Positions 41,344 to 60,118 of a stretch of 64,000 nucleotides of DNA are shown here, piece after piece; positions within the stretch are counted from its first letter, which is position 1; each line of letters begins with the position of its first letter. The position numbers and the translations under genes are program-made. The stretch spans positions 2,080,001 to 2,144,000 of the forward strand of contig CAWAIF010000003.1 of NCBI GenBank assembly GCA_963782055.1, in the 5' to 3' direction. The notes under the pieces were generated by a model, which was not told the DNA's origin, searched no databases, and worked only from the letters and a program-made list of their open reading frames with translations. The stretch comes from an uncultured delta proteobacterium. Its GTDB lineage: Bacteria; Myxococcota_A; Polyangia; Polyangiales; Polyangiaceae.

Positions 41344-42709
41344 GGGATCCTCAGTGCGGGGTGGGCGGGATGACGACGGTGTTGATGGGCTGGACGTTCA
41401 TCCCGCCGGGGTACGCGTAGGAGACGTTCTCGGTGAAGATGCTGGTCTTGGGCGTGCCCCAGCCCCAGACCCAGAGGCCGAAGGGCGCCTTGCTCTCGAG
41501 CTCGTGGCGGCCGTTGGAGCAGCCATTGACGCTCTGGAAGTCGCCGGTGGAGACGTCCTGCCGCGTCCACTCGTAGTCGCCGACCGCCTTCCATCCGGTC
41601 AGGGGGGACTTGAGGCAGTCGAGGGTGACGTCCTGGAACTGGTTGTTTTCGTCCTTGCGGCGCACCACCACCAGGTTGGTCTCCGGGAAGGTGGGGTCCG
41701 TCATGATGACGTACTGGTTCATGTACTGCTGCGGCGGGACCATGACGGAGAAGTCGGGATCGCCGTAGCCGCTCTTGTCCTGCATCTGCGTCCAGTTGGA
41801 GCCGCTCATGTAGGCGAAGAGCTCGAAGGGGTGCTTGTCGTCCTGGCTCTTCACGACGAAGGGCGTGCCCGTCGTGAACTCGACCATCTGGCCTTCCTTC
41901 ACTGTGGCCGGGGCGCCGGCGATCTGCGGGGTGTAGGTGAGCTTGGTGCCGTCCACCGCGCCGACGACGCGCCAGATGGCCGGCTCGCCGGCGCGCGGCC
42001 GGTACATCACGCCGACGTACTCGCTGCCCAGGGCGCGCACCGGCGGGATCATCTGCTCGCCGTGGTCGCAGAAGATGGTGCCCTGCGGCATGTTCATGCA
42101 CGGGTTGCCCGCCATCACCCCGATGGGCGCGGTGGAGGAGATGACGCTCCCGACGAGGTCGGCGCTCTGCTTGATCTGCGCCTGCCCGCCCTTGTTCAGG
42201 GTGAAGGTCACCGGCGAGTTGGCGCCCGCGGAGGGGATCCCGTTGCCGCCGGCCAGCGCGACGCTGGGGAGGAAGGTGATCTTGTTGTTGTCGGTCGCCG
42301 AGATGATGTTGATCGACGGGGCGTCGACCGTCTGCGGCGAGGCGGTGGAGGCGATGTAGTTGGTGTCCCACGCGCTGACGGGCAGGAGCAGCGAGGCGCC
42401 GGTGACGGCGACGCTGCCGCCGCCGTAGGGGTTCATCTCGTAGGCGACGACGGGGACGTCGGTGGTGATGTGGAAGGAGTGGCCCCCGTTGCCCGAGCCG
42501 CCGGACGGCGCGTACATCGCCGCGGTGCCCTGGAAGGTGGGCGCCGGGCAGAGCGGCTTGGCGCCCTGGTTGCCGCCGAGGAAGACGATGGCGACCTCGC
42601 CCGCGGCCAGGCCGGTGGCGGAGCTGTAGGCCTGGTAGGTGAGGCTCGCCCCGGAGCCCTGCGGGATGCGCGTGAAGTTGTCGATGTTGGTGACCTTGGT
42701 GCCGTTGAA

Positions 42710-44364
42710 CCTGGATTTCGCTCGCACCGGTCCTCGGAGCGGGCGCGGGCGTCGCACGGGTCGGCGCGTCCCGGATCGGTGCCCGGCACGGCTGCCGCGC
42801 ACGATAAGCGCGTAGCGTGAGCACACGTCCCCCTTTCCCCCGCCTCGCAAACCAAGTTGTGTGCCGGTCAATTCAGCATCGGGCGAGGAGCGAGTCGCAG
42901 CTGCCAGCGACCCCCGACGCGCAGCAGGCGAGCGGGCACCAGGACGCAGGCGCGACGCATCCAGGTCGCGCGCCAGTGTGCCACGGCGGTCCCCGGGCAC
43001 AGCGACAGCACCCAGCGACGCATCAGGTTGTAGGCCAGCAGCTTGAGCAGCAACGCGGCCTCGTTGGCGTCGAAGGTGTTCGTCGGGGCGTAGCCGATGC
43101 CGAAGGCGTTCTTGAGCTCGGCGAAGAGCGGCTCGATCCCCGCCCGGCCGTCGTAGAAGCGCGCCACGTCGTCGGCGTCGCGGTCGTGATCGTTGGTCAG
43201 GTAGACCTGCGCCGAGTAGTCGAGGTCCTCCCAGAGGTGGACCTGCTTGCCGGTGTCGCGCTCGCTGGTCCGCACCGCCACCACGCGCCAGCCGGGAGGC
43301 CAGTCGTCGCGGCGGAAGTCCACCACGGCGACCTGTCGCGTCGGCTCGCCGAAGGCATCGCGATCGGTCGTGCGCCAGCGCGTCGTGCGCGCGACGGCGC
43401 TCATCAGGTTGGCGGTCTGCCGCATCTTCGCCACGAAGTACGCCCCGCCGCGCTCGACCGCAGAAAGCAGCGCTGCAGACTCTCCGCCGGAGTCGATCCG
43501 CATCGTCACCACGGCTTTCGGCGCGGCGCGATGCAGCCGTCCGATCCACTGCGCGATGTCCTCGACGTCGTCCTCGCCGATGCCCGTGTCGCCCGGCCGC
43601 AGCCGCGCTCCGAGCATCGTATCGGTCTCGGCGATGCGCGCCAGGATCGGGTGATAGCTCACGCGGCCGTGGTAGCGCGGGTTGTAGCCGACGTGCGCTC
43701 CCTCTTGCTCGCCGAACAGCGGCGTCACCGTCGTGTCCACGTCGATGGTCAGCTCCTTGGCGCGGAGCTTGGTGAGCGGCTCGAGCCCCTGCTCGGCCAT
43801 CAGCTCTTCCAGCCTCTCGAGCTCGCGGCCCCTGAAGCGCCGCAGATCGTCGTAGAGCACGTCGATGCTCGGCACGATGCCGCCGGCGAGGTGCCGGAAC
43901 ACCGGGTCCGTCGCGAGCACCTCGAAGTCGAAGATGCGCCGCGCTCCCGCCACCGACGCGTCGAGCAGAAGCTGAATCTGCGCCGCCATCGGATAGACCA
44001 CCTGCGCTCCGGTCTTGAGGTGCCCGAAGTCCCGCCGAAGCCGACGCCCGAGTCCAATCCCCTGCACGAACGCGTTGAAGGACGCGAGGCCCCCGAGTCC
44101 CGACAACCTCGGGTCCGGCCGCCCCACCTCCAGCCCGCTCGCGCGTGCTCGCCGCACCCGGCGATTCGCCCGCTGCCACTCCCACCCCTCGGGACGCTTG
44201 CTTCCGAGCTGCTCTCGTCGCACCTTCTGGGTGCTCGGCGTGTCGCTTGCTGTTGTCTTCATCAACTCCATCAACCGGCGCGCCGAGCGCTAAATTCCAG
44301 GGCGCGCGTCGATTTTCAGGAGCGTGCATCATGCAACCGTCGCCGGAATGGAGCGAAATCTAGG
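42710..44364 (-). mobile_element. IS1380-family insertion sequence (1655 bp)
   Basis: Terminal IRs CCTGGATTTCGCTC and GAGCGAAATCTAGG match at 13/14. A 5-bp TTGAA direct repeat sits at 42705-09 and 44365-69. One transposase gene. Confidence 0.92.
42868..44274 (-). CDS. IS1380-family DDE transposase
   Basis: LTIDVDTT..LFGEQEGA..GYN...YHP; LRPGDT; RIDSG; FYDGRAGIE..FAELK; FDANEA. Confidence 0.9.
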   Translation of the reverse strand: MMELMKTTASDTPSTQKVRREQLGSKRPEGWEWQRANRRVRRARASGLEVGRPDPRLSGLGGLASFNAFVQGIGLGRRLRRDFGHLKTGAQVVYPMAAQIQLLLDASVAGARRIFDFEVLATDPVFRHLAGGIVPSIDVLYDDLRRFRGRELERLEELMAEQGLEPLTKLRAKELTIDVDTTVTPLFGEQEGAHVGYNPRYHGRVSYHPILARIAETDTMLGARLRPGDTGIGEDDVEDIAQWIGRLHRAAPKAVVTMRIDSGGESAALLSAVERGGAYFVAKMRQTANLMSAVARTTRWRTTDRDAFGEPTRQVAVVDFRRDDWPPGWRVVAVRTSERDTGKQVHLWEDLDYSAQVYLTNDHDRDADDVARFYDGRAGIEPLFAELKNAFGIGYAPTNTFDANEAALLLKLLAYNLMRRWVLSLCPGTAVAHWRATWMRRACVLVPARLLRVGGRWQLRLAPRPMLN

Positions 44365-44963
44365 TTGAACTCCACCGCGATGTGCACCGGCGTGTTCCAC
44401 GTGTTGGCGACGAAGGCGGCGAAGCAGTCGCTGGCGCCCGCGTAGGTCTGCATGTGCGTCGCGTAGTAGTCGCAGCCCACCGACTGCTTGTTGTTGACCG
44501 CGGCGGTGCACGCGTTGGTGCACTGGCCGGTACCGATGTCGCAGCCATCGGTGCCGCTGCACGTCTGGATGACGTTGTTGTTGCAGTCGAGGACGCTGTG
44601 CAGATCGCTCGAGCACTTGCCCTGGCACACCGTGCCGTCGCCCCCGCCGTCGCTCGGCGGGAAGAAGGGGTCCCCGTCCTGCGTCAGCACGTCCATGTCG
44701 GTGGCGTCGACGCCTCCGTCGTCCTGGCCGAAGGCGCTCGGCCCGGTGCCACCGCAGCTCGAGACCGCCAACGTTCCCCCCACCAACCCGACCGCCACCA
44801 GAGAGAGGACCGTCACGCGCATCGCAAGCACCTCCAAGTCCGTCCACTTTAGCGCATTTTTCCGCCCGAGGACCCTCGGCACCGAGCCCACATGTGCGCA
44901 CGCGCGCCGCCATCGGCGCCCGAAGCTGCCGACACCCCGCGGCTTCGCGCTATGCTGCGCCCC

Positions 44964-45812
44964 GTGACGACTCTCTGGGACCGCGCGGCTCCTGGCTATC
45001 TCGAGGAGTGGGTTCCCCGGCTCGCCCCGTACCACACCGACTTCGTGACCGAGCTCTGCGTCCACGCCGGGGATCGCGTCCTCGTCGTGGCGTCGGGGCC
45101 GGGGTCGGAGGCCGTGGCGGTGGCGCGCGTCGTGGGGGAGGAGGGCTTCGTACGGCTGGTGGACTCCAGCCGCGCCATGCTCGACCTCTGCGAGGCGCGC
45201 CTCGCGCAGGCGGCGGTCCCGTGCCGCACCGAGACGGTGTGCGCCGAGCCGAGCGACGCGAGCGGTGGTCCCTACCACGCCGTCGCCTGCGCCTTCGGCT
45301 TGCTCGGGCTCCCGGATACCGGCGCCGCCCTGCGCGCGTGGCGCGACGCCCTCGCCGAGAGCGGCAAGGTGGGCGTGATGGTGTGGGGACCGCCGGCGGC
45401 AGACGATCCGTACGAGCTCTTCGCCCGCGTCGCGGTGGAGCTGGAGCCCGACATGCACGCTGCCTGCCACCATCCCGGCGTCGTGGATCGCGCGGGGATG
45501 GCGGCCATGTTCGAGGAGGCCGGGATGGCGATGGTCCGCCACACGGTGGTGGCCCACACGCTCGTCTTCAAGCGGGCAGAAGACTTCACCCGCGCGCTGC
45601 TCTCCTCGTGCGCGTGGCGTGACGAGCTCAGGGCGATCGGAGCGGCGCGCGCGGCGAAGATCTCTGCGCGCTTCTTCGAGGCGGTGGGCGGGCCGGACGC
45701 GCCGCTCACCTACCGGCCGCCGGCCACCATCGCCCTCGCGGGGCTGCCGGGCGCGCAGATCGAGCTGCCGCACAGGCCGAGCGTGCGCATCCCGGCGGTG
45801 TCGCCGTCGTGA
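44964..45812 (+). CDS. Class I SAM-dependent methyltransferase-like protein
   Basis: WDRAA..Y; GDRVLVVASGPG (degenerate motif I); LVDSS..ML; CAFGL..LPD..AAL. Alternative ATG at 44952. Confidence 0.72.
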   Translation: MTTLWDRAAPGYLEEWVPRLAPYHTDFVTELCVHAGDRVLVVASGPGSEAVAVARVVGEEGFVRLVDSSRAMLDLCEARLAQAAVPCRTETVCAEPSDASGGPYHAVACAFGLLGLPDTGAALRAWRDALAESGKVGVMVWGPPAADDPYELFARVAVELEPDMHAACHHPGVVDRAGMAAMFEEAGMAMVRHTVVAHTLVFKRAEDFTRALLSSCAWRDELRAIGAARAAKISARFFEAVGGPDAPLTYRPPATIALAGLPGAQIELPHRPSVRIPAVSPS

Positions 45813-48944: not shown

Positions 48945-50379
<1,435 letters not shown>

Positions 50380-50383
<4 letters not shown>

Positions 50384-50430
50384 CACCCGCGTAACGCGCG
50401 AGTGCCGAGTCACCCGCCCGTCACCAGCGC
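50380..50430. promoter_or_regulatory. 11-bp-periodic direct repeats, Pho-box/OmpR-family operator-like
   Basis: GTGAC (50380), GTAAC (50391), GTGCC (50402); GTCACC at 50409 and 50420. Confidence 0.5.
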
Positions 50431-50598: not shown

Positions 50599-51816
50599 AT
50601 GCGAAGGTCTCACAAGGGCGTCGCGGTGCTCGCTTCGTGCACCGCCGTCCTCGCTGCATCGACGGCGCACGCGGCCAATCCGCCGTGCGACAACACCGGG
50701 CTCGCGGGCACGGTCATCTACGTCGGCGGTTCGAGCGCCGCCAAGCCGATGCTCAAGCAGGTCAGCGGCACGCTGGCCAAGCTGAGCTCCCCCATTCGCG
50801 TCATCTACCAGAGCCTCGGCTCCTGCGCCGGCCTCACCGACATCACCACGGACACCAAGGAGTCCACCACCGGCGTCTACTGGGACGAGAGCAACAACCT
50901 GCAGGAGCTCTCCTGCGACCCGCCGCAGGGCGGCTCGGCGCTGGACGTCGCCGTCTCCGACGTGTTCCCGACGTCGTGCACCAACATCACCCTCAAGGGT
51001 AACCAGCAGGACAACCAGGGCTCCGCCCAGGTGTTCATGTTCATCACCTCGCCGTCCTCCAAGGAGAACGTCGTCAGCGAGGAGGCGGCGTTCGTCGCGT
51101 ACGGGTGGGGCGGCAACACGCACGTCGTCGACCCGTGGAACGACAATGCCTACGTCTTCTTGCGCGACCCGGCGAAGTCGGGCACGTACTCGATGCTCGC
51201 CAAGCTCCTGGCGCTCGACCCGGCCAAGGAGAAGGGGACGATCCCCGGGGCCGGCAAGACGCCGGACATCGTCAACGCAGTCCACGCGGCGGACTCCACC
51301 AAGCCCGACGCCTCCATCGGCGTGGTCTCGGCGGACTACGGCGACGCCAACCGCAGCGGCAACTCGGCGGTGAAGATCCTCGCCTACCAGGACAAGGGCG
51401 CGGCCTGCGGCTTTTACCCTGACTCCGGCGGAACCACCTTCGACAAGATCAACGTGCGCACCGGGCTGTACCCGTTCTGGGGTCCCATCCACTTCATCGC
51501 CGACAAGAGCCCCAAGGCCGAGGTGGCCACGCTCCTGTCCTTCTTCACGCGCGAGGGCCTCTCCGACGCGAACAAGAAGCAGATGATCGACAACGAGGTC
51601 GCCGCGTTCACCGTCCCGCAGTGCGCGATGAAGGTGAAGCACACCGCGGAGACGTCCCCGGGCGCCTCGCTCAACCTCACCCCCTACGACTCCCCCGAGC
51701 CTTGTGGTTGCTACTACGAGTTCAAGGCGACCGGGACCACGAGCTGCACCGCGTGCACCGATGACGGGCCGTGCGGCGGCGGCAAGTGCCGCTACGGCTA
51801 CTGCGAGGCCAAGTGA
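50599..51816 (+). CDS. PstS-like (PBP type 2) substrate-binding protein with Cys-rich tail
   Basis: GGAGG RBS and signal peptide. GGSSA, YQSLGSCAG, DVAVSD and RDPAKSGT parallel the PstS phosphate-binding motifs. Confidence 0.72.
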   Translation: MRRSHKGVAVLASCTAVLAASTAHAANPPCDNTGLAGTVIYVGGSSAAKPMLKQVSGTLAKLSSPIRVIYQSLGSCAGLTDITTDTKESTTGVYWDESNNLQELSCDPPQGGSALDVAVSDVFPTSCTNITLKGNQQDNQGSAQVFMFITSPSSKENVVSEEAAFVAYGWGGNTHVVDPWNDNAYVFLRDPAKSGTYSMLAKLLALDPAKEKGTIPGAGKTPDIVNAVHAADSTKPDASIGVVSADYGDANRSGNSAVKILAYQDKGAACGFYPDSGGTTFDKINVRTGLYPFWGPIHFIADKSPKAEVATLLSFFTREGLSDANKKQMIDNEVAAFTVPQCAMKVKHTAETSPGASLNLTPYDSPEPCGCYYEFKATGTTSCTACTDDGPCGGGKCRYGYCEAK

Positions 51817-52070
51817 TGAAGACCCGAACGCTGCTCCTCCTCGCGGTGGCCGTCACCGTGCCGGTGTTCTCGCTCGCCGCGTGCGGCGGAGACGACAACA
51901 ACAACGCGGACGGCGGCCCGCAGAACCAGGTCGACGCCGGCAACGACGTCACGACCGACACCGGCACCGGCACCGACGCGGGCGCGGACGCTCCCAACGC
52001 GTGCGCGACCGGCATCGTGTTCGACAACGCGGGCCGCGTGCCCAGCTGGCCGAACCCGCCGCAACCCTGA
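51816..52070 (+). CDS. Small lipoprotein (84 aa)
   Basis: TGATG coupling to the upstream gene, LAAC lipobox, DAG/DTG linker and C-terminal C...FDNAGRV. Confidence 0.75.
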   Translation: MKTRTLLLLAVAVTVPVFSLAACGGDDNNNADGGPQNQVDAGNDVTTDTGTGTDAGADAPNACATGIVFDNAGRVPSWPNPPQP

Positions 52071-52093
52071 ACGAGAACCGAACCGTGGGCCCG

Positions 52094-52122
52094 GGGGGCG
52101 GAGGCAGTGCGCCTCCGCCTCC
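52094..52122 (+). terminator. Intra-operon GC stem-loop (attenuator or mRNA stabiliser)
   Basis: GGGGGCGGAGGC-agtgc-GCCTCCGCCTCC, with no U-tract. Confidence 0.45.
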
Positions 52123-52147
52123 GCGGGAGAGGAAAGGATCTGCCGTC

Positions 52148-53563
52148 GTGAAGGTGACGCTCTCGCGGCTCCTGGCGCTCGTCGTGGTGACCGCTTCGTG
52201 GCTGGGCTCGGCACCGGTCGCGCGGGCACAGGACGACGACGACCTGGTCGTCTCGGCCAACCCCGGGGCGACGGCGCCGCCTCCCGCGCCCGCGCCGAGC
52301 GCGGCGACCGCCGCTCCCTCCGGCGTCGAAGCCCGGCTTCGCGCGCTGGAGGAGAAGAACGCGGCGCTGGAGGCGCGCGTGAAGCGCGACTGGCTGCACG
52401 TCCTGCTGGCGCCGCTCCACGGGAGCGCCTTCGTGCAGGGCGACTACCACGGCAGCCAGCTCTCCGAGGACCAGGTCCAGCAGGGCGGCGTGCTCTACAA
52501 CGAGGACCGCTTCCTGCTGAAGACGGCGCGCGCGCGCCTCGACGCGCGCTGGAAGTACGCGGGCGCCGAGCTGGAGCTCGAGGCCAACACCGTCAGGGGT
52601 CCGACGCTGCGGATGTACCACGCGTTCGGGACGCTCCGGCTCCCCAACCCGAAAAACCACGAGGTGCCCATCGCGGCGGCGAGCATCGGCCAGATCGACA
52701 CGCCTTACGGCTACGAGCTGCCGGAGTCGCCGCGCACGCGCTACTTCGTGGATCGCACCACCTCCTCGCGCGCGCTCTTCCCCGGCGTGCCCGACCTGGG
52801 CCTGTGGCTGCACGGCGGGCTCGGCCCCTTCCGGTGGAGCTTCGCCGCGATGAACGGCAACCCGCTCGACACCATGTACGCCGACCTGGCGCCTGTGAGC
52901 GCGAAGCAGGTCGTCTTCCGTCTGGGCTTCGAGACCCACGCGCGCAAAGACCTGGAGATCGCCGGCGGCGTCTCCGGCCTGCGCGGCAAGGGCTTCCACC
53001 CCGGCACCGACGCGAGCAAGAACCTCGTCGCCTGGACCGACAGCAACGAGGACGGCGCCATCCAGCCGTCGGAGCTCTCCGGGGAGGCGGCCACCGCGGC
53101 GGTGCCCTCCATGCTCTTCGACCGCTGGGCGATCGGCGCCGACCTGCAGGCGCGGCTCCATACGCGCCTCGGGACGACCACCGTGTACGGCGAGGTCACC
53201 GTCGCCGACAACCTGGACCGCGGCCTGTACGTGGCCGACCCGGTCTTCCTCGGCCAGGACGTGCGCGAGCTCGGCGCCTACGCGGCGGTCACGCAGCAGG
53301 TCACGCGCTGGGGCGTCGTCGGCTTCCGCTACGACTACTACGACCCCAACCTGGATGCCTTCGACAGGCGGGAGGGCAAGCTCATCCCGACCAGGCAGGT
53401 CATCCAGACGTTCTCGCCGCTGGTCGGCCTGGTGCTGCCCGGACGGGCGCGGCTGCTCTTCGAGTACGACTTCGTCCGCGATTCGCTGGGTCGGAGCACG
53501 GCGGGCATCCCGGCGGACCTGAGCAACGACGCGTGGACCCTCCGCCTGCAGGTGTCGCTGTGA
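52148..53563 (+). CDS. Outer membrane porin, OprO/OprP-like
   Basis: GGAAAGGA RBS, signal peptide and short coiled coil. RFLLKTARARL and GQIDTPYGYE..SP resemble OprO/P-type motifs. C-terminal beta-strand TLRLQVSL. Confidence 0.68.
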   Translation: MKVTLSRLLALVVVTASWLGSAPVARAQDDDDLVVSANPGATAPPPAPAPSAATAAPSGVEARLRALEEKNAALEARVKRDWLHVLLAPLHGSAFVQGDYHGSQLSEDQVQQGGVLYNEDRFLLKTARARLDARWKYAGAELELEANTVRGPTLRMYHAFGTLRLPNPKNHEVPIAAASIGQIDTPYGYELPESPRTRYFVDRTTSSRALFPGVPDLGLWLHGGLGPFRWSFAAMNGNPLDTMYADLAPVSAKQVVFRLGFETHARKDLEIAGGVSGLRGKGFHPGTDASKNLVAWTDSNEDGAIQPSELSGEAATAAVPSMLFDRWAIGADLQARLHTRLGTTTVYGEVTVADNLDRGLYVADPVFLGQDVRELGAYAAVTQQVTRWGVVGFRYDYYDPNLDAFDRREGKLIPTRQVIQTFSPLVGLVLPGRARLLFEYDFVRDSLGRSTAGIPADLSNDAWTLRLQVSL

Positions 53564-54528
53564 GGCGCGCGGCCGTCGCCGTGCTCGCCGGCGGGTCGCT
53601 CGCCCTCGCGTCGTTCGCGGCGTGCGACGACGGCGCGGTCCACACCCTCGGCCTGAGCGAGCCGCTGCGCGTGCACGACGCGCAGTTCATCCCAGGCCCG
53701 CTGCCCGGAGCGGCGCCCGACGCCGGGGCGGGGACGGGGCCGCAGATCACCAACGTCACCCTCACCAACCCCACGGTGCTGCCCGGCCAGGCGGGCAAGG
53801 CGATCAACGGGCGCGCGAAGGACTCCGCCAGCGCCGTGGGCCTGCGCTTCGCCGACATGGGGTCCGGCTACTGGGTCGTGCCGATGGGACCGGCGGACAA
53901 CCAGTTCCCCGGCGAGCTCACCTGGCAGGCCATCACCGACGTCAGCCCCCTCGTCGCGAGCGCCCCCGGCTTCCACGAGGTGCGCGCCGTCGCCTTCGAC
54001 GCGCAGGGCAACGCCGGGACCCAGAACGACTTCACGCTTTGCATCGAGCCGGCCATCCCGGACAACGGCGCCACCTGCAATCCGAGCAGGACCCCGCCGG
54101 CCGCGCTCGTCTCCCTCACGTGGGACCCGGGCGTGGACATCGACCTGGTGCTCGTCGGCCCGGGCGGCAAGGTCGTCGACGCCAAGCACCCCACCACGCT
54201 TGGCCCCGACGCCGGGCTGGCCGACGGCGGGCCGGACCCGACCGGCGGCCGGCTCGATCGCGACTCGCTCGCTGGGTGCGTCGAGGACGGCCGCCGGCGC
54301 GAGGACGTCGTCTGGCAGCAGCCCCCCGCCAGCGGCACCACCTACGACGTCTACGCCAACCTCTTCGACGCGTGCGGCGAGGTGAGCGCCTCCTACGTCG
54401 CCACCGTCTACGCCGCGCAGGACGGCCGGCTCACGGCCGTGCAGAGCGCGAAGGGCGGCTTCACCCGGTACGACGCCAACGGCGGCGCGGCCCTCGGCAC
54501 GTACCTGTTCTCGTACTCCTTTCCCTGA
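53560..54528 (+). CDS. Lipoprotein with YfaP/DUF2135-like domain
   Basis: FAAC lipobox; SLTWD..VDIDL...LDRDS..C...EDVVW...YDVY. GTGA overlap. Confidence 0.72.
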   Translation: MRRAAVAVLAGGSLALASFAACDDGAVHTLGLSEPLRVHDAQFIPGPLPGAAPDAGAGTGPQITNVTLTNPTVLPGQAGKAINGRAKDSASAVGLRFADMGSGYWVVPMGPADNQFPGELTWQAITDVSPLVASAPGFHEVRAVAFDAQGNAGTQNDFTLCIEPAIPDNGATCNPSRTPPAALVSLTWDPGVDIDLVLVGPGGKVVDAKHPTTLGPDAGLADGGPDPTGGRLDRDSLAGCVEDGRRREDVVWQQPPASGTTYDVYANLFDACGEVSASYVATVYAAQDGRLTAVQSAKGGFTRYDANGGAALGTYLFSYSFP

Positions 54529-54551
54529 CTCCGCATCCCAAGGAGACTCTC

Positions 54552-55259
<708 letters not shown>

Positions 55260-55262
55260 CCG

Positions 55263-55676
55263 ATGGGCGCCGCACTCTCCTCCGGCAACGGCAAGCGCGC
55301 GGGCATCGTCGCCATCAACATCACGCCGATGGTGGACGTCATGCTCGTCCTCCTCGTCATCATGATGGTCTCGGCGACGTACATCGTCTCGCAGAGCCTG
55401 AAGGTCGAGCTCCCCAAGAGCGCCAGCACCGACGACAGCGTCGCCCGCCTGGCGGCGGTGAGCATCGACAAGGACGGCAAGTACTTCTTCAACGAGAAGC
55501 CCGTCACCGAGGCGCAGCTGGTCGCGAAGATGCGCGATGCCAAGGAGGCCGACAAGGACGTCAGCCTGGTGATCAGCGGCGACGCGCACACCTTCCACGG
55601 CAACGTGGTGCACGTCATCGACCTCGCCAAGCAGCAGGGCATCGTCAAGTTCGCCATCAACGTCGAGCGCGAGTAG
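55263..55676 (+). CDS. exbD: ExbD/TolR family protein
   Basis: INITPMVDVMLVLLVIMMV, VELPK, ISGD. Confidence 0.92.
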   Translation: MGAALSSGNGKRAGIVAINITPMVDVMLVLLVIMMVSATYIVSQSLKVELPKSASTDDSVARLAAVSIDKDGKYFFNEKPVTEAQLVAKMRDAKEADKDVSLVISGDAHTFHGNVVHVIDLAKQQGIVKFAINVERE

Positions 55677-55680
55677 GCGG

Positions 55681-56415
55681 ATGCGCAGCAAGCTCCAGCT
55701 GGCCATCGTGAGCGGAAGCCTCACCCTCCACTTCATCGGGTGGGCGTGGGTCGGCCTGCTCGGCAAGGAGCACCACTACGACACCGTCGCCATCGAGCTG
55801 GCGGAGGCGAAGAAGAAGAAGCCGGAGAAGAAGCCGCCGCCGCCCCCGCCGGTGGAGGTGAAGCCGGAGAAGAAGAAGGCCAAGATGCTGCCGAAGCCGG
55901 TGGTGAAGCAGGCCGCGCCGCCGCCCCCGCCGGAGGCGCCGCCACCGCCGAGTCACCCCGGCAAGGGCGGCGACGACATGTCCGGCTTCCAGGACCTCGG
56001 CCTGAGCCTGAGCGGCGGCACCGGCAGCGACGGCATCGCGGTGCCTGCGGGCGGCGGCGGGGCAGGGGGCGCGCCGGCGCCGAAGCCCGCCCCGACGCAC
56101 AGGAAGGTGGAGCGCCTCGCGGCGCCGGCCGACGACTGCACCGAGGATCTCGTCAAGCCGAAGCTGCTCCACCCGGTGCAGCCCGCGTACACGCAACAGG
56201 CTCGCCAGGCCAACGCCGAGGGCTTCGTGCAGCTCGAGCTCACCATCGACGCCAGCGGCCGCGTGGTGGCGGTGAAGGTCCTCAGGAGCCTCGGCTTCGG
56301 GCTGGACGAGGCGGCCATCTCCGCGGCGAAGCAGTGGACGTTCGCGCCCGCGACGCGCTGCGGGAAGGCCGTGCCCACCACCGTCAAGCCCAGGGTGCGC
56401 TTCACGCTGTCATGA
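55681..56415 (+). CDS. tonB: TonB-family energy transducer
   Basis: TM helix containing SLTLH, Pro/Lys-rich spacer and TonB_C domain (PAYTQQAR..EGFV...GLDEAAI.A.KQW.FAPA). Confidence 0.88.
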   Translation: MRSKLQLAIVSGSLTLHFIGWAWVGLLGKEHHYDTVAIELAEAKKKKPEKKPPPPPPVEVKPEKKKAKMLPKPVVKQAAPPPPPEAPPPPSHPGKGGDDMSGFQDLGLSLSGGTGSDGIAVPAGGGGAGGAPAPKPAPTHRKVERLAAPADDCTEDLVKPKLLHPVQPAYTQQARQANAEGFVQLELTIDASGRVVAVKVLRSLGFGLDEAAISAAKQWTFAPATRCGKAVPTTVKPRVRFTLS

Positions 56416-59072
56416 GGCTCGCGCGAAGGGCATCGGTGTGGTTCGCGTGCGTCGCGCTCGCCGGCGCGGGCGCCACCGCGCGCGCGCAGGACCTCTCCGG
56501 CGAGACGCACGTCGGCCCGGAGAAGCGGGTGATCGTCCCGCCGAAGCTCCAGAGGTTCGTCGAGGCCGCCTACCCGCAGGACAGGAAGGCGGCGGGCGTC
56601 CAGGCGACGGTCACCCTGCAGATCGGCATCGACGAGACGGGCGCGGTCGCCGCGGTGAAGGTGCTGGGGTCCGCGGGGCCGGACTTCGACGCGGCGGCGG
56701 TCGCGGCGGCGAAGCAGTTCGTCTTCGCCCCGGCCACGGTGAACGGCAAGGCGGTGCCGGTGAAGATCACCTACCGCTACCAGTTCGTCATCCGGCAGGA
56801 GGTCAAGAAGCCGACCACCGCCGAGATGACCGGACAGGTCGTCGACCGCGGGACCAGCAAGCCCGTGGCGGGCGTCACCGTCGCGCTGGACACTGGCCAG
56901 AACGCGGTGACCGGCGCCGACGGCAAGTTCGTCATCCACGGCGTCGCGCCGGGCAAGCACGGCGTGACCCTCACCGGCGAGAAGCTCACGCCCATCGGCA
57001 CCGAGGAGAGTTTCGAGGCGGGCAAGCAGCTCGACGCCACCTACGACGTGGAGCTGAAGACGGAGAAGGCCCCCGACGACGACAGCGACTTCGAGATCGT
57101 GGTGACCGCCCCGCGGCTGGGCAAGCAGGTGATCTCCACCGAGATCACCGCCAAGGAGGCCACCAAGATCCCCGGCACGCAGGGCGACGTGCTCAAGGTG
57201 GTGGAGAGCATGCCCGGCGTCGCGCGCGCGGCCGTCGGCTCGGGCGCCATCGTGGTGTGGGGCTCCGCCCCGGAGGACACCGGCGTCTACGTCCAGGGCG
57301 TGCGCGTCCCGCGCCTCTATCACGACGGCGGCTACCGCTCGGTGGTCCACGGCGATCTGGTCAAGTCGGTGGAGCTCGTCCCCGGCGGCTACGGCGCGCA
57401 GTACGGCCGCGGCCTTGGAGGCCTCATCACCGTCGCCCTGCGCCCCATGGACGACGACAAGGTGCACGGGTCGGTCAGCGCCGACGTCATCGACGCCGCC
57501 GCCTCGGTGCGCGGGCCCATCGGCGACAAGCTCCACTTCACCCTGGCCGGCCGCAAGGGCTATCTCAAGGAGGTGGTGGAGGGCGTCGGCTCGGCGAGCG
57601 TCGCCGACGTCGTGCCGCTGCCGCAGTTCTGGGACGCGCAAGCGCGCCTGCAGTACGACCTCAGCCCGAAGGAGTCGCTGGAGCTGGGCGGCCTGCTCTC
57701 CTCCGACCAGACCGACTACAACCTGGTCGATCCCGACCCGGCCCAGACCAAGCGCGAGTCGCGTGGGCTGACCTTCGGGCGCGTGTGGGTCCGCTACTCC
57801 AAGGTCACCGAGCACAACGACGCCATCTCGGTGCTCCCGTACTACGGGCGCAACGTCTCCTCGCTCGCCGACAGGTTCGGCGCCACGCCCACCACCCTGG
57901 ACGCCACCGGCGACGTGTTCGGCCTGCGCGCGAGCTACCGCACCCAGCCGGCGAAGTGGCTCACCGTGACGGTCGGCCTGGACTCGGAGGTGACCGCCAG
58001 CACCGTGCGACGGCAGGGCTCGGTCACCTCGCCGGCGCGCGAGGGTGACGTGCACGTCTTCGGTCAGCCGCCGGCCGATCAGGTCAACGTGGACGACTGG
58101 AACACCGTCGTCGGCGGCTTCGCGCCCTTCGTCGAGGCGGACGTGGCGCCGCTGGGCGATCGCCTCCACGTCATCGGGGGCATGCGCCTGGAGCCGTACC
58201 TCGTCTCGGTCTCCAGGTCGCGGCCCATCCGCGGCGACGAGCCCCCGGTCGGCCTCTTCTCGGAGGACACCGCCGTCGAGCCGCGCATCGCCGTCCGCTA
58301 CCAGGTCTCGCCCCGCTTCACCGCGAAGGCCGCCTTCGGCATCTACCACCAGCCCCCCGCGCCCGGCGACCTGTCGGCGGTCTTCGGCAACCCGACCCTC
58401 GGCCTCTCCCTCGGCCGCCACACCCTCGCCGGCGGCGCCTTTCACCTGACCAGGACGCTCTCGCTGGAGGTGACGGGTTTCTACAACGTGATGGAGAGCC
58501 TGGTGGCGCGCAGCAGCTCCCCCGCGCCGGAGCTCGCCAGGGCGCTGGTGCAGGACGGCTCCGGTCGCGCCTACGGCGTCCAGTTCATGCTCCGGCAGGA
58601 GCGCATCGGTCCCTTCTTCGGGTGGCTCAGCTACAGCATCTCGCGCAGCGAGCGGCAGGACGCGCCCGGCCAGCGGTACCGCCTCTTCGACTACGACCAG
58701 ACGCACACCCTCACCGCCGTCGGATCGCTCGACCTGGGCAAGGGGTTCGAGGTCGGCCTGCGCTTCCGCGTCTCCACCGGCTTCCCTCGGACGCCCGTCG
58801 TCGGCTCGTACTACGACGCGCGCACCGACAGCTACCAGCCGCTCTTCGGGGCGAAGAACACCGAGCGCATCCCGGCGTTCGTGCAGCTCGACGCGCGCGT
58901 GGCCAAGACCTTCAAGATCGGCAAGACGGAGGCGGAGGTGTACCTGGACGTGCAGAACGTGACCGACACGTCGAACGCCGAGGAGATCGTCTACGGCTAC
59001 GACTACCGCCAGAGGGCGTACATCACCGGCCTGCCCATCCTGCCGGTCCTGGGGGCGAAATGGTCTTATTGA
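56412..59072 (+). CDS. TonB-dependent receptor with N-terminal TonB_C-like and carboxypeptidase-regulatory-like domains
   Basis: Signal peptide; AAYP...FDAAA..AAKQFVFAPA; TGADGKF; plug domain (PGTQGDVLKVVESMPGV, PGGYGAQYGR..GG); barrel ending LDVQNV..ILPVLGAKWSY. Confidence 0.9.
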   Translation: MRLARRASVWFACVALAGAGATARAQDLSGETHVGPEKRVIVPPKLQRFVEAAYPQDRKAAGVQATVTLQIGIDETGAVAAVKVLGSAGPDFDAAAVAAAKQFVFAPATVNGKAVPVKITYRYQFVIRQEVKKPTTAEMTGQVVDRGTSKPVAGVTVALDTGQNAVTGADGKFVIHGVAPGKHGVTLTGEKLTPIGTEESFEAGKQLDATYDVELKTEKAPDDDSDFEIVVTAPRLGKQVISTEITAKEATKIPGTQGDVLKVVESMPGVARAAVGSGAIVVWGSAPEDTGVYVQGVRVPRLYHDGGYRSVVHGDLVKSVELVPGGYGAQYGRGLGGLITVALRPMDDDKVHGSVSADVIDAAASVRGPIGDKLHFTLAGRKGYLKEVVEGVGSASVADVVPLPQFWDAQARLQYDLSPKESLELGGLLSSDQTDYNLVDPDPAQTKRESRGLTFGRVWVRYSKVTEHNDAISVLPYYGRNVSSLADRFGATPTTLDATGDVFGLRASYRTQPAKWLTVTVGLDSEVTASTVRRQGSVTSPAREGDVHVFGQPPADQVNVDDWNTVVGGFAPFVEADVAPLGDRLHVIGGMRLEPYLVSVSRSRPIRGDEPPVGLFSEDTAVEPRIAVRYQVSPRFTAKAAFGIYHQPPAPGDLSAVFGNPTLGLSLGRHTLAGGAFHLTRTLSLEVTGFYNVMESLVARSSSPAPELARALVQDGSGRAYGVQFMLRQERIGPFFGWLSYSISRSERQDAPGQRYRLFDYDQTHTLTAVGSLDLGKGFEVGLRFRVSTGFPRTPVVGSYYDARTDSYQPLFGAKNTERIPAFVQLDARVAKTFKIGKTEAEVYLDVQNVTDTSNAEEIVYGYDYRQRAYITGLPILPVLGAKWSY

Positions 59073-59083
59073 GGTCCCGGGCG

Positions 59084-60118
59084 GTGAGATCAATCGCTGT
59101 CCTGCTCGCCCTGCTCGCCGGGGGGTGCAAGCCGGACCTGAGCGGGCGCTCCTCGCAGATCACCGGCACGCGCGTGCTCGCGGTGCAGTCCACGCCGGCG
59201 GAGGTGGAGACGCAGGACGCGGTCACCTACGACGCGCTTGTGGTGGACCCCTCCGGAGAGGTCGCGGCGCCGGGGCTCGACTGGGCGTACTGCGCGCTTC
59301 GCAAGCCGCTCGACGAGCTGGACTCGGTCAACCCGGCGTGTTTGCAGGCGTCGGGCGACGGCATCGTGGAGCTGGGCGCCGGCGCCACCGCGTCCGGGAC
59401 AATCCCGCGCGACGCGTGCCGCAACTTCGGGCCGGACGTGCCCTCGGCGAGCCCGGGGCAGCCGCAGGGGAGGCCCGTCGATCCGGACCCGACCGGCGGC
59501 TACTACCAGCCGCTGCGCGTGCTGCTCTCGGCGGGCGACGGCGTGGCCCCCGTCATCGGCACCACGCGCGTCGCGTGCGGCCTCGCCAGCGCCTCGGCGT
59601 CGGACTCCGCCGTCTTCCGGGCGCGCTACCACCCCAACCAGAACCCGTCGGTCCTCTCCGTCACCTCCGCCGCGAGCGGCGGCGCGCCGCTGGGCGAGGA
59701 CGACGCGGACGCGACCCCGGTCACCGCCGGCGCGGCGATCACCCTCACCGTGAGCTGGCCCGACTGCCCGGCGAGCGACGCGTGCGGTGACGGCGTCTGC
59801 GGGGCGGACGAGTCGAAGGCGACGTGCTCCGCCGATTGCACGACGCCGGTGGGCTGCGGCGGCGCCGAGCGCTACGTCTACTACGACCTGGAGCAGCGAG
59901 CGGTGACCGTCGTGCGCGAGTCGATGCGCGTCTCCTGGTTCACCACCGGCGGCGCCTTCGCCTCCGACCGCACCGGCCGTGAGGGATCCGACACCGCCAC
60001 CACCACCTCCGACGTGCTCACCCTCCCCCCCGACCCCGGCCTGGTCCACGGCTGGGTCGTGCTGCGCGACGACCGCGGCGGCGTCGGCTGGAAGCCCTTC
60101 GTCCTGGACGTCAAGTGA
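59084..60118 (+). CDS. Lipoprotein partner of the TonB-dependent receptor
   Basis: LAGGC lipobox; RVLAV..PAE; NQNP; CGDGVC repeat; C-terminal WVVLRDDRGGVGW. Confidence 0.78.
   Translation: MRSIAVLLALLAGGCKPDLSGRSSQITGTRVLAVQSTPAEVETQDAVTYDALVVDPSGEVAAPGLDWAYCALRKPLDELDSVNPACLQASGDGIVELGAGATASGTIPRDACRNFGPDVPSASPGQPQGRPVDPDPTGGYYQPLRVLLSAGDGVAPVIGTTRVACGLASASASDSAVFRARYHPNQNPSVLSVTSAASGGAPLGEDDADATPVTAGAAITLTVSWPDCPASDACGDGVCGADESKATCSADCTTPVGCGGAERYVYYDLEQRAVTVVRESMRVSWFTTGGAFASDRTGREGSDTATTTSDVLTLPPDPGLVHGWVVLRDDRGGVGWKPFVLDVK

Follow-up and report, generated by a model that had tools for sequence, protein, structure and literature searches.

A conserved Myxococcota module of a PstS-fold protein, an OprP-like porin and a Ton motor with a probable role in phosphate acquisition

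Introduction

On the usual view, phosphate enters across the outer membrane passively, by way of porins. What, then, is the role of a locus in which a PstS-fold binding protein and a porin share an operon with a Ton motor and a TonB-dependent transporter? The locus in question occupies positions 50599–60118 of a 64,000-nucleotide stretch (hereafter the window) of contig CAWAIF010000003.1, from an uncultured member of the Polyangiaceae with a genome of 7.58 Mb. Its nine genes are numbered g1–g9 in transcription order. A first-pass annotation of the window proposed that they form a phosphorus-scavenging outer-membrane system with its own motor and no ABC permease, for a phosphorus-containing substrate that may be bulky (polyphosphate or nucleic-acid fragments among the options). 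Our analysis indicates that the module is very probably a phosphate-starvation acquisition system, with a binding protein whose pocket is of the orthophosphate type.

Results

The module and its conservation

The module consists of nine open reading frames (ORFs) on the + strand, all with a GC content at third codon positions (GC3) of 0.94–0.99, and their coordinates, GC3 and Pfam matches uphold the nine co-oriented genes of the first-pass annotation. Long overlapping ORFs on the minus strand were rejected as shadows, since GC peaks at their codon position 1. Four of the eight junctions overlap (g1/g2 by 1 nt, g3/g4 by 4, g7/g8 by 4 and g8/g9 by 13), and the others are gaps of 77 nt (g2/g3), 23 nt (g4/g5), 3 nt (g5/g6) and 4 nt (g6/g7). 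Neither a promoter (sigma-70 scan) nor a + strand terminator was detected at the locus, a scan that is uninformative at 72% GC.

Judged from the names and record titles of homologs, the family belongs to Myxococcota, chiefly to Polyangia. A g1 profile search of 401 sampled genomes of the phylum gave matches in 34; a strong g3 match was present in 29 of these, and g1 in 29 of the 30 genomes with a strong g3 match, the g3 search having used a stricter first look than that for g1. The five g1-bearing genomes without a strong porin match count against a fixed unit, hence g1 and g2 can exist without the channel. Gene order was compared in the window and 117 further loci, 39 of them stretches around g1 matches and 78 drawn from the best 80 of 101 porin matches; three exact duplicates were removed and genes were assigned by BLAST. 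Sampled loci are labelled L and sampled genomes G, with G000 for the source genome. All 58 loci that hold g1, g3, g4, ExbB, ExbD, g8 and g9 have the order and strand of the window, and TonB is present in every one of them. The synteny check called for in the first-pass annotation thus confirmed a conserved gene order, and chance clustering of the genes was rejected. The motor is less constant than had been assumed: 11 loci lack exbB-exbD-tonB and run from g4 directly to g8, so it is dispensable in cis and not a fixed part. The remaining loci are cut at contig ends, diverged, or hold g1 without the module. Long insertions separate g1/g2 from g3 at L103 (~2.0 kb), L133 (~6.0 kb) and L149 (~1.7 kb), the last seemingly with an extended or doubled g1 region.

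A PstS-fold binding protein and its likely tether

The first gene, g1 (50599–51816, +), encodes a secreted protein of 405 residues with a cleavable signal peptide, 14 Cys and a Cys-rich C-terminal tail. It matches Pfam PBP_like_2 at 30 bits (cut-off 27) and reaches 33.6 bits with TIGR02136, the curated PstS model, where the cut-off is 206.6. In its AlphaFold model (predicted local distance difference test, pLDDT, 93) the predicted fold is that of PstS. The top 13 of 13 VIA structural matches are phosphate-binding proteins (Z 26.1–17.8), the best with a root-mean-square deviation (rmsd) of 2.4 over 252 aligned residues, and Foldseek is concordant. Scores were lower for sulfate-binding proteins (at most 15.7), ModA (~14) and iron-binding proteins (~13). 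Identity to solved PstS proteins is 13–20%.

The phosphate ligands of Escherichia coli PstS are T10, F11, S38, D56, R135, S139, G140 and T141, and sulfate is not adsorbed by the protein, for which D56 is given as a ligand (PMC6549937, excerpted text). These positions align with S46, A47, S75, D121, R189, S194, G195 and T196 of g1. The seven that contribute a side chain or a glycine (S46, S75, D121, R189, S194, G195 and T196) are all kept in the window protein and in 47 of the 51 loci of its pocket type, a group defined by the Asp itself. By this alignment the pocket is an orthophosphate-type site, and the phosphate pocket whose presence was critical to the first-pass annotation is there. Fold and aligned pocket residues together make phosphate the probable ligand. 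In this sense g1 would work like PstS, yet it is not the PstS of an ABC importer, because it falls far under the curated cut-off and the genome carries a separate, canonical pstS.

The 84-residue lipoprotein g2 (51816–52070, +) consists of a flexible linker and a conserved C-terminal motif at residues 61–84. Among 90 distinct loci with both g1 and g3, a small lipoprotein bearing this motif comes after g1 in 85, and a profile finds three more. The motif also occurs fused to g1. Thirty-five database homologs of g1 have long N-terminal extensions, and in 32 of them the motif precedes the g1 domain; three proteins have it on the C-terminal side. Because of these fusions, g2 is a likely tether of g1.

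At six loci (L044, L049, L053, L056, L058 and L061) g1 is the gene after a Ser/Thr kinase gene, mostly with TPR/PEGA-like genes as well, and the g2 motif is either part of the same protein or comes behind it; porin and transporter are absent. These are possible phosphate-sensing kinase modules.

Pho-type regulation and the pst operon

Pho boxes are tandem 11-nt repeats (PMC4415409, in part). We used the half-site pattern GTYAY-N6-GTYAY, a simplification of the consensus quoted in the excerpt of PMC2225411. Two candidate PhoB sites precede g1: a repeat of this pattern with an 11-bp period at 50380–50395 on the − strand, overlapping the stop of the upstream PALP gene, and a Pho-box-like direct repeat at 50409–50424 on the + strand, ~190 nt upstream of g1. 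The source genome contains 39 exact repeat sites, which is no excess over several other spacings, and the two upstream of g1 are the only pair within 150 bp among them; the same pattern precedes pstB. Across the family, an exact repeat with an 11-bp period lies upstream of g1 homologs at 16 of 96 loci, against 0–4 at nine other spacings.

Furthermore, 28 of 100 module loci, the window locus included, have a PhoB-like regulator in their flanking sequence (825 kb in total), where the density of such regulators in the source genome (2 per 7.58 Mb) leads one to expect ~0.2. PhoB is the best NCBIfam match in nine of the nine flanking regulators tested, although all score under the TIGR02154 cut-off, which counts against the assignment. 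At L112 the flanking regulator heads a phoR-pst operon, and pst genes adjoin the module at L077, L080, L089 and L112. From these sequence patterns we consider PhoB control of the operon highly likely.

No pstCAB gene lies between window positions 44000 and 64000. The source genome carries a full phoR-pstB-phoU-pstS-pstC-pstA-phoU operon at G000:C3:3108426-3115585, with the canonical pstS. The ABC permease noted as absent in the first-pass annotation is indeed absent from the locus, but this is not special, with pstSCAB elsewhere in the genome and pst beside several related modules; the missing permease is therefore a local absence only, and its treatment as the key feature was rejected, pst being present in trans.

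Two PhoB-like regulators of the source genome (G000:C3:5551610 and C3:5877367) are not linked to phoR, and both are preceded by a Pho-like repeat with one mismatch. A second porin family is also represented there: one gene is flanked by two purple-acid-phosphatase-like genes (G000:C3:3129522-3133773), a paralog (C3:3115717-3117387) stands right after the pst operon, and the same family flanks the module at L073, L075, L103, L106 and L139.

Pocket types as a natural control

Asp56 is the residue that excludes sulfate from PstS. Typed by the g1 pocket alone, the loci fall into an Asp type (51, window included), an Asp-less type (33) carrying S75A, D121G, G195A and T196A/V, and a third type (7). 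An exact Pho-like box occurs at 15 of the 51 Asp-type loci and one with at most one mismatch at 40 (shuffle means 0.05 and 5.8); a PhoB-like regulator is adjacent at 25 and a sigma-54 motif at none. For the 31 Asp-less loci with upstream sequence the corresponding counts are 0/31 exact boxes and 1/31 PhoB-like regulators, with a sigma-54 motif at 17/31 (reverse strand, 1). By tblastn, 10 of 33 Asp-less loci have sulfur genes (sbp-cysTWA, TauD, SsuA-like, cysteine synthase, cysteine dioxygenase and DUF6691) nearby, against none of the 51 Asp loci. Met use in g1 and ExbB of Asp-less modules is about half that of the Asp type. The PALP gene at L046 was rejected as a cysteine synthase, being a Ser/Thr dehydratase, and this locus is counted as sulfur-linked only through DUF6691.

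Fixed differences between the two types number six in g1, five of them in the pocket; g8 has two, both conservative, and g3 (which shows one H-to-R shift), g4 and g9 have none. As the type-fixed differences concentrate in g1, specificity seems, from sequence, to sit in g1 alone. The Asp-less type forms one clade (support 99, quick porin tree), within which L063 and L065 are nested with D121, G195 and T196 regained and with ppk1 and phnW/phnX as neighbours.

Several points weigh against this contrast. Asp-less loci supplied the sulfur-gene queries, and YeeE/DUF6691-like genes next to Asp-type L050 fell under the tblastn threshold. In the window, the gene upstream of the module is itself D-cysteine desulfhydrase/CuyA-like. 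Neither L063 nor L065 has a Pho-like box. Since the sulfur type is one clade, the phosphate/sulfur contrast rests on few evolutionary events, and Fisher p-values exaggerate it.

The third type (L038, L041, L045, L048, L055, L064 and L149) mostly lacks motor genes and has ModA-like or HTH-PBP regulator neighbours at four of seven loci, which suggests a molybdate/tungstate version. The cultured carriers of the family are Labilithrix luteola (L074 and L102), Minicystis rosea (L078) and Chondromyces apiculatus (L107); in L. luteola (NZ_CP012333.1) the phosphate-type L074 and the Asp-less, sulfur-linked L102 are ~58 kb apart.

An OprP-like porin with a TonB-box-like strand

The porin g3 (52148–53563, +; 471 residues) is predicted to form 16 barrel strands (model pLDDT 90), with the position of the L3 fold-in taken from topology. 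Its best structural match is OprP (2o4v; Z 27.8, rmsd 3.4, 303 aligned), followed by a match at Z 24.8. A periplasmic linker and coiled coil precede the barrel, g3 has many conserved Arg, and 16 basic positions are conserved across the family. We scanned 35 porins, the window protein and 34 homologs, five of which were chosen for phosphate-porin labels. Porin_O_P (PF07396) matched weakly in 13 of the 35, eight at or over the cut-off and mostly in the first 120 profile positions; EF-hand matches were weak and found in two. A DxNxDG Ca-binding-like motif (residues 298–309, 53039–53074, +) lies in long loop 5, and its conservation and predicted extracellular topology suggest a possible docking site for an outside partner. 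There was no plasmid match for g3.

At the mature N-terminus, before the hypervariable linker and coiled coil, g3 has an acidic, alternating-hydrophobic strand (residues 31–37, 52238–52258, +) that is similar in sequence to the TonB box of the transporter g8. We take the likeness to extend to the general TonB-box consensus. A matrix trained only on g8's own box was applied to 70 porins, with unplaceable starts dropped; at p ≤ 0.05 it detected the strand in 31 of 56 motor-module porins and in 0 of 6 motor-less porins scored. A regular expression found it in 33 of the 56, compared with 4.5 in shuffles, and a first, strict expression in 16 of 92 locus porins and 46 of 100 closer homologs. By eye, the strand is absent in 10 of 11 motor-less porins, most of which also lack the stalk; L149 keeps a possible copy. 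The sisters L127 (motor and box) and L145 (neither) differ as predicted, and L143 has the box in three tandem copies.

Two sets of results temper these readings. For the porin label, Foldseek does not separate OprP from general porins, and the window protein has neither a Pfam match nor a PDB sequence match to OprP; the "OprP-like" of the first-pass annotation survives in that the fold search ranks OprP first, but is weaker than written. For the strand, 25 of 56 motor-module porins have no detectable box, hence TonB-porin coupling is not obligatory. That TonB binds the N-terminal strand of g3 is, on this sequence likeness, a tentative proposal that we judge somewhat less probable than its opposite.

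A second Porin_O_P-like porin was observed at L060, L069, L141, L143 and L144, where it accompanies only Asp-less (sulfur-linked) modules.

Motor, transporter and partner lipoproteins

The motor genes g5 (ExbB/TolQ, 54552–55259, +), g6 (ExbD/TolR, 55263–55676, +) and g7 (TonB, 55681–56415, +) gave strong ExbB, ExbD and TonB_C Pfam matches, and g7 combines a membrane anchor, a Pro/Lys-rich linker and TonB_C. The TonB-dependent transporter g8 (56412–59072, +) has an N-terminal, fused TonB_C followed by CarboxypepD_reg, Plug and barrel; its TonB box is D226–A233 with an invariant E228, and 33 basic positions are conserved. The Pfam scan gave no STN domain in g8.

Two larger lipoproteins complete the module: g4 (53560–54528, +; 322 residues), without known family and coupled to the porin gene, and the Cys-rich g9 (59060–60118, +; 352 residues), coupled to g8. 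None of the window proteins g2, g3, g4 and g9 has a Pfam match, Pfam returned nothing useful for 91 members of g4 and 69 of g9, and profiles of g3, g4 and g9 had no PDB sequence matches. Atlas searches with g4 and g9 gave unnamed Myxococcota clusters. The label "YfaP-like" given to g4 keeps an Atlas lead (0.84 to a cluster with 65% DUF2135) but is likewise weaker than written, as DUF2135 (PF09906) matched 0 of the 91 members at E ≤ 0.01. In the source genome a g8 paralog likewise precedes a lipoprotein of this kind, 61 of the 401 genomes contain weak relatives of g9, and similar transporter-lipoprotein pairs are found elsewhere in myxobacteria; the g8-g9 pair is therefore a wider myxobacterial design recruited to the module.

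Neighbouring genes

Immediately upstream of g1 lies the co-oriented PALP gene (49370–50383, +), D-cysteine desulfhydrase/CuyA-like, with the same neighbour at L033 and L090. A P-II gene (48945–49283, −) is divergent from it. Further upstream, a 468-residue ORF (42868–44274, −), presumably an IS1380-type transposase, seems to interrupt a long secreted-protein gene with a lipoprotein-like start at 44488–44967 and the rest ending at 41351.

Discussion

Mechanism and alternatives

The mechanism that we propose is a tethered capture protein that is unloaded at the outer membrane with Ton energy and feeds PstSCAB in trans, and we give it slightly less than an even chance. The operon would be induced on phosphate starvation, and g1 would bind phosphate while held, probably on the cell surface, by the lipid-anchored g2 peptide. 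The ExbB-ExbD-TonB motor would act on g8, and possibly also on the OprP-like porin g3, to unload g1, and the phosphate set free would be taken over by the usual PstSCAB importer, whose genes lie elsewhere in the genome. Both g8-g9 and g3-g4 would recognise the binding protein, not the anion. A position of g1 on the outer surface is mildly favoured; the 12–15 Cys of most g1 copies and the near-invariant predicted outer loops of g3 and g8 were counted towards it.

A bolder version, which we think rather unlikely, is a reprogrammable oxyanion-capture machine in which TonB grips an OprP-type porin via the box on its stalk and a tethered, disulfide-armoured PstS-fold "phosphophore" is the sole part that carries specificity. 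If true, five or six pocket residues and a promoter swap would convert the machine from phosphate to a sulfur oxyanion, perhaps to molybdate/tungstate, and g3 would be the first TonB-energised classical porin, a categorically new element.

The constancy of g8 across ligand types bears on what the transporter carries. It would be expected if g8 handled protein cargo, as in a model where g8-g9 and the motor serve for the export or display of g1-g2 (and g4) across the outer membrane in the manner of Oar/PopC and surface g1 concentrates phosphate ahead of diffusion through the porin. We regard such export as improbable. The transporter has the CarboxypepD_reg N-terminal extension of the Oar class (PMC6434023, in part) and the Psp of Pseudomonas is, in the text excerpted from PMC2225411, a secreted PstS relative beside its own secretion system; SusC importers, however, have the same extension, fused g2-g1 lipoproteins in G189 and G219 occur without a strong g3 or g9 match, so that this exporter is unneeded there, and a porin TonB-box-like strand that tracks the motor is left unexplained. 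The same constancy is unexpected for a substrate-specific importer, as in the view closest to the first-pass annotation, to which we assign an equally low probability: g8-g9 would import a bulkier phosphorus compound (phosphate esters, phosphonates or short polyphosphate) in the manner of SftP, a TonB-dependent receptor in a sulfate-ester cluster of P. putida (PMC7711191, in part), with g1 tethered on the periplasmic side as a sink for phosphate entering via g3 or released from imported compounds. Purple-acid-phosphatase-like genes flanking 4 of 100 loci, phnW/phnX beside L065, TauD beside three sulfur-type loci, the 33 conserved basic positions of g8 and a long g2 linker that could span the periplasm would suit it, but the conserved module has no hydrolase and a second high-affinity periplasmic sink would duplicate PstS. 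Of the earlier claims, phosphorus scavenging is well supported by the pocket residues, Pho-box-like repeats and PhoB/pst neighbours, and the bulky substrate is not borne out, given an orthophosphate-type pocket and a g8 near unchanged between pocket types.

Two other explanations leave acquisition of phosphate aside. If g1-g2 sensed external phosphate or bound mineral or polymer surfaces, with the outer-membrane parts signalling or anchoring, the solo or fused g2-g1 genes after Ser/Thr kinase and TPR/PEGA-like genes (L044, L049, L053, L056 and L061) would provide a signalling context in which most g1 copies keep the phosphate pocket; PstS-containing appendages are reportedly present in P. aeruginosa. 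The module itself has no sigma/anti-sigma pair, no kinase and no STN domain in g8, and its neighbours are nutrient importers and their regulators, which makes this model very unlikely. Least credible is an iron, cobalamin or sulfur uptake system with an incidental resemblance to PstS. The N-terminal TonB_C architecture is common to g8 and the myxochelin receptor MxcH, and the upstream gene is sulfur-amino-acid lyase-like, but the MxcH (NF038079) match covers TonB_C only (78 bits, cut-off 925), the fold and pocket of g1 are PstS-type, and the Asp type has Pho-like boxes and no sigma-54 motif. Uptake of iron or B12 was rejected on the PstS-type g1, the Pho-like boxes and the partial MxcH match.

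Unloading of tethered g1 at the outer membrane, if true, would mean energised, protein-mediated capture, a new means by which bacteria of soils and sediments could compete where phosphorus is scarce. If the TonB box is real, its presence on a porin that has no plug would widen the roles of the Ton motor and could bear on the unexplained exbB2-exbD2-tonB4-porin cluster of P. aeruginosa. The switch between phosphate and sulfur pockets offers a ready, natural test of how a binding protein discriminates phosphate from sulfate, and the cultured strains of L. luteola (with both types), M. rosea and C. apiculatus make the module testable.

Comparison with known systems

The literature searched, which excludes most subscription journals, gave no description of this combination of genes, in agreement with the first-pass annotation, which had not recognised it as a characterised system. 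Four features are additional to that account: the Pho-box-like sites, the link of g1 and g2 through fusions, the sister clade with sulfur genes, and the TonB-box-like strand of the porin. The module is real and conserved, and is likely a variant of TonB-dependent, binding-protein-assisted uptake with no prior description in that literature.

With PstSCAB and OprP/OprO it shares the PstS fold and site residues, a 16-strand porin closest to OprP, and Pho-box-like 11-bp repeats. Unlike PstS, g1 has 14 Cys with a Cys-rich tail, a separate lipoprotein tether and no ABC partner in cis; unlike OprP/OprO, g3 has a periplasmic stalk and a TonB-box-like strand, and a Ton motor and TonB-dependent transporter lie in the same operon.

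The nearest analog, by cluster content, is the lapA-pdtAB-exbB2-exbD2-tonB4-PA0696 cluster of P. aeruginosa, a sigma-VreI phosphate-starvation cluster whose Ton system is described as "still uncharacterized" (PMC7035377, excerpted text). As far as that excerpt describes them, both combine a link to phosphate starvation (a probable one here) with a secreted relative of PstS, a Ton motor of their own and a putative porin. The genes listed for it include those of two-partner and type II secretion but none for a TonB-dependent transporter, whereas the present module has g8 and three lipoproteins and lacks secretion genes. The comparison of g3 with PA0696 is drawn from the cluster description. We take PA0696 to be a PF16930-type porin; PF16930 had no match in the 35 porins scanned, and the module contains no TpsA/TpsB. 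For the Psp/DING protein of P. fluorescens, a role as extracellular phosphate scavenger that serves Pst has been proposed (PMC2225411, in part).

As a working analogy, the hemophore system HasA/HasR/HasB has an extracellular binder that gives up its ligand at a TonB-dependent receptor served by a TonB of its own (PMC11658791, in part), much as g1 may be unloaded at the outer membrane. It differs in that there is no sequence relation, the ligand here would be an oxyanion, the binder would be tethered instead of free, and there is an extra porin. SusC/SusD and SftP resemble the module in that a transporter is paired with a lipoprotein encoded downstream of it, in having additional lipoproteins, and in the CarboxypepD_reg extension, but g9 has no SusD, Pfam or PDB match (69 members, sequence searches), the core has no hydrolase, and the match of g8 to SusC TIGR04056 is marginal (12.9 bits, cut-off 368). 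Finally, Oar of Myxococcus xanthus is a CarboxypepD_reg transporter beside exbB/exbD/tonB that acts in TonB-dependent protein secretion of PopC, and the sequence features distinguishing TonB-dependent import from export are stated to be not known (PMC6434023, in the part cited). Oar is 300–400 residues longer than typical transporters; g8 instead has a fused TonB_C and a partner lipoprotein.

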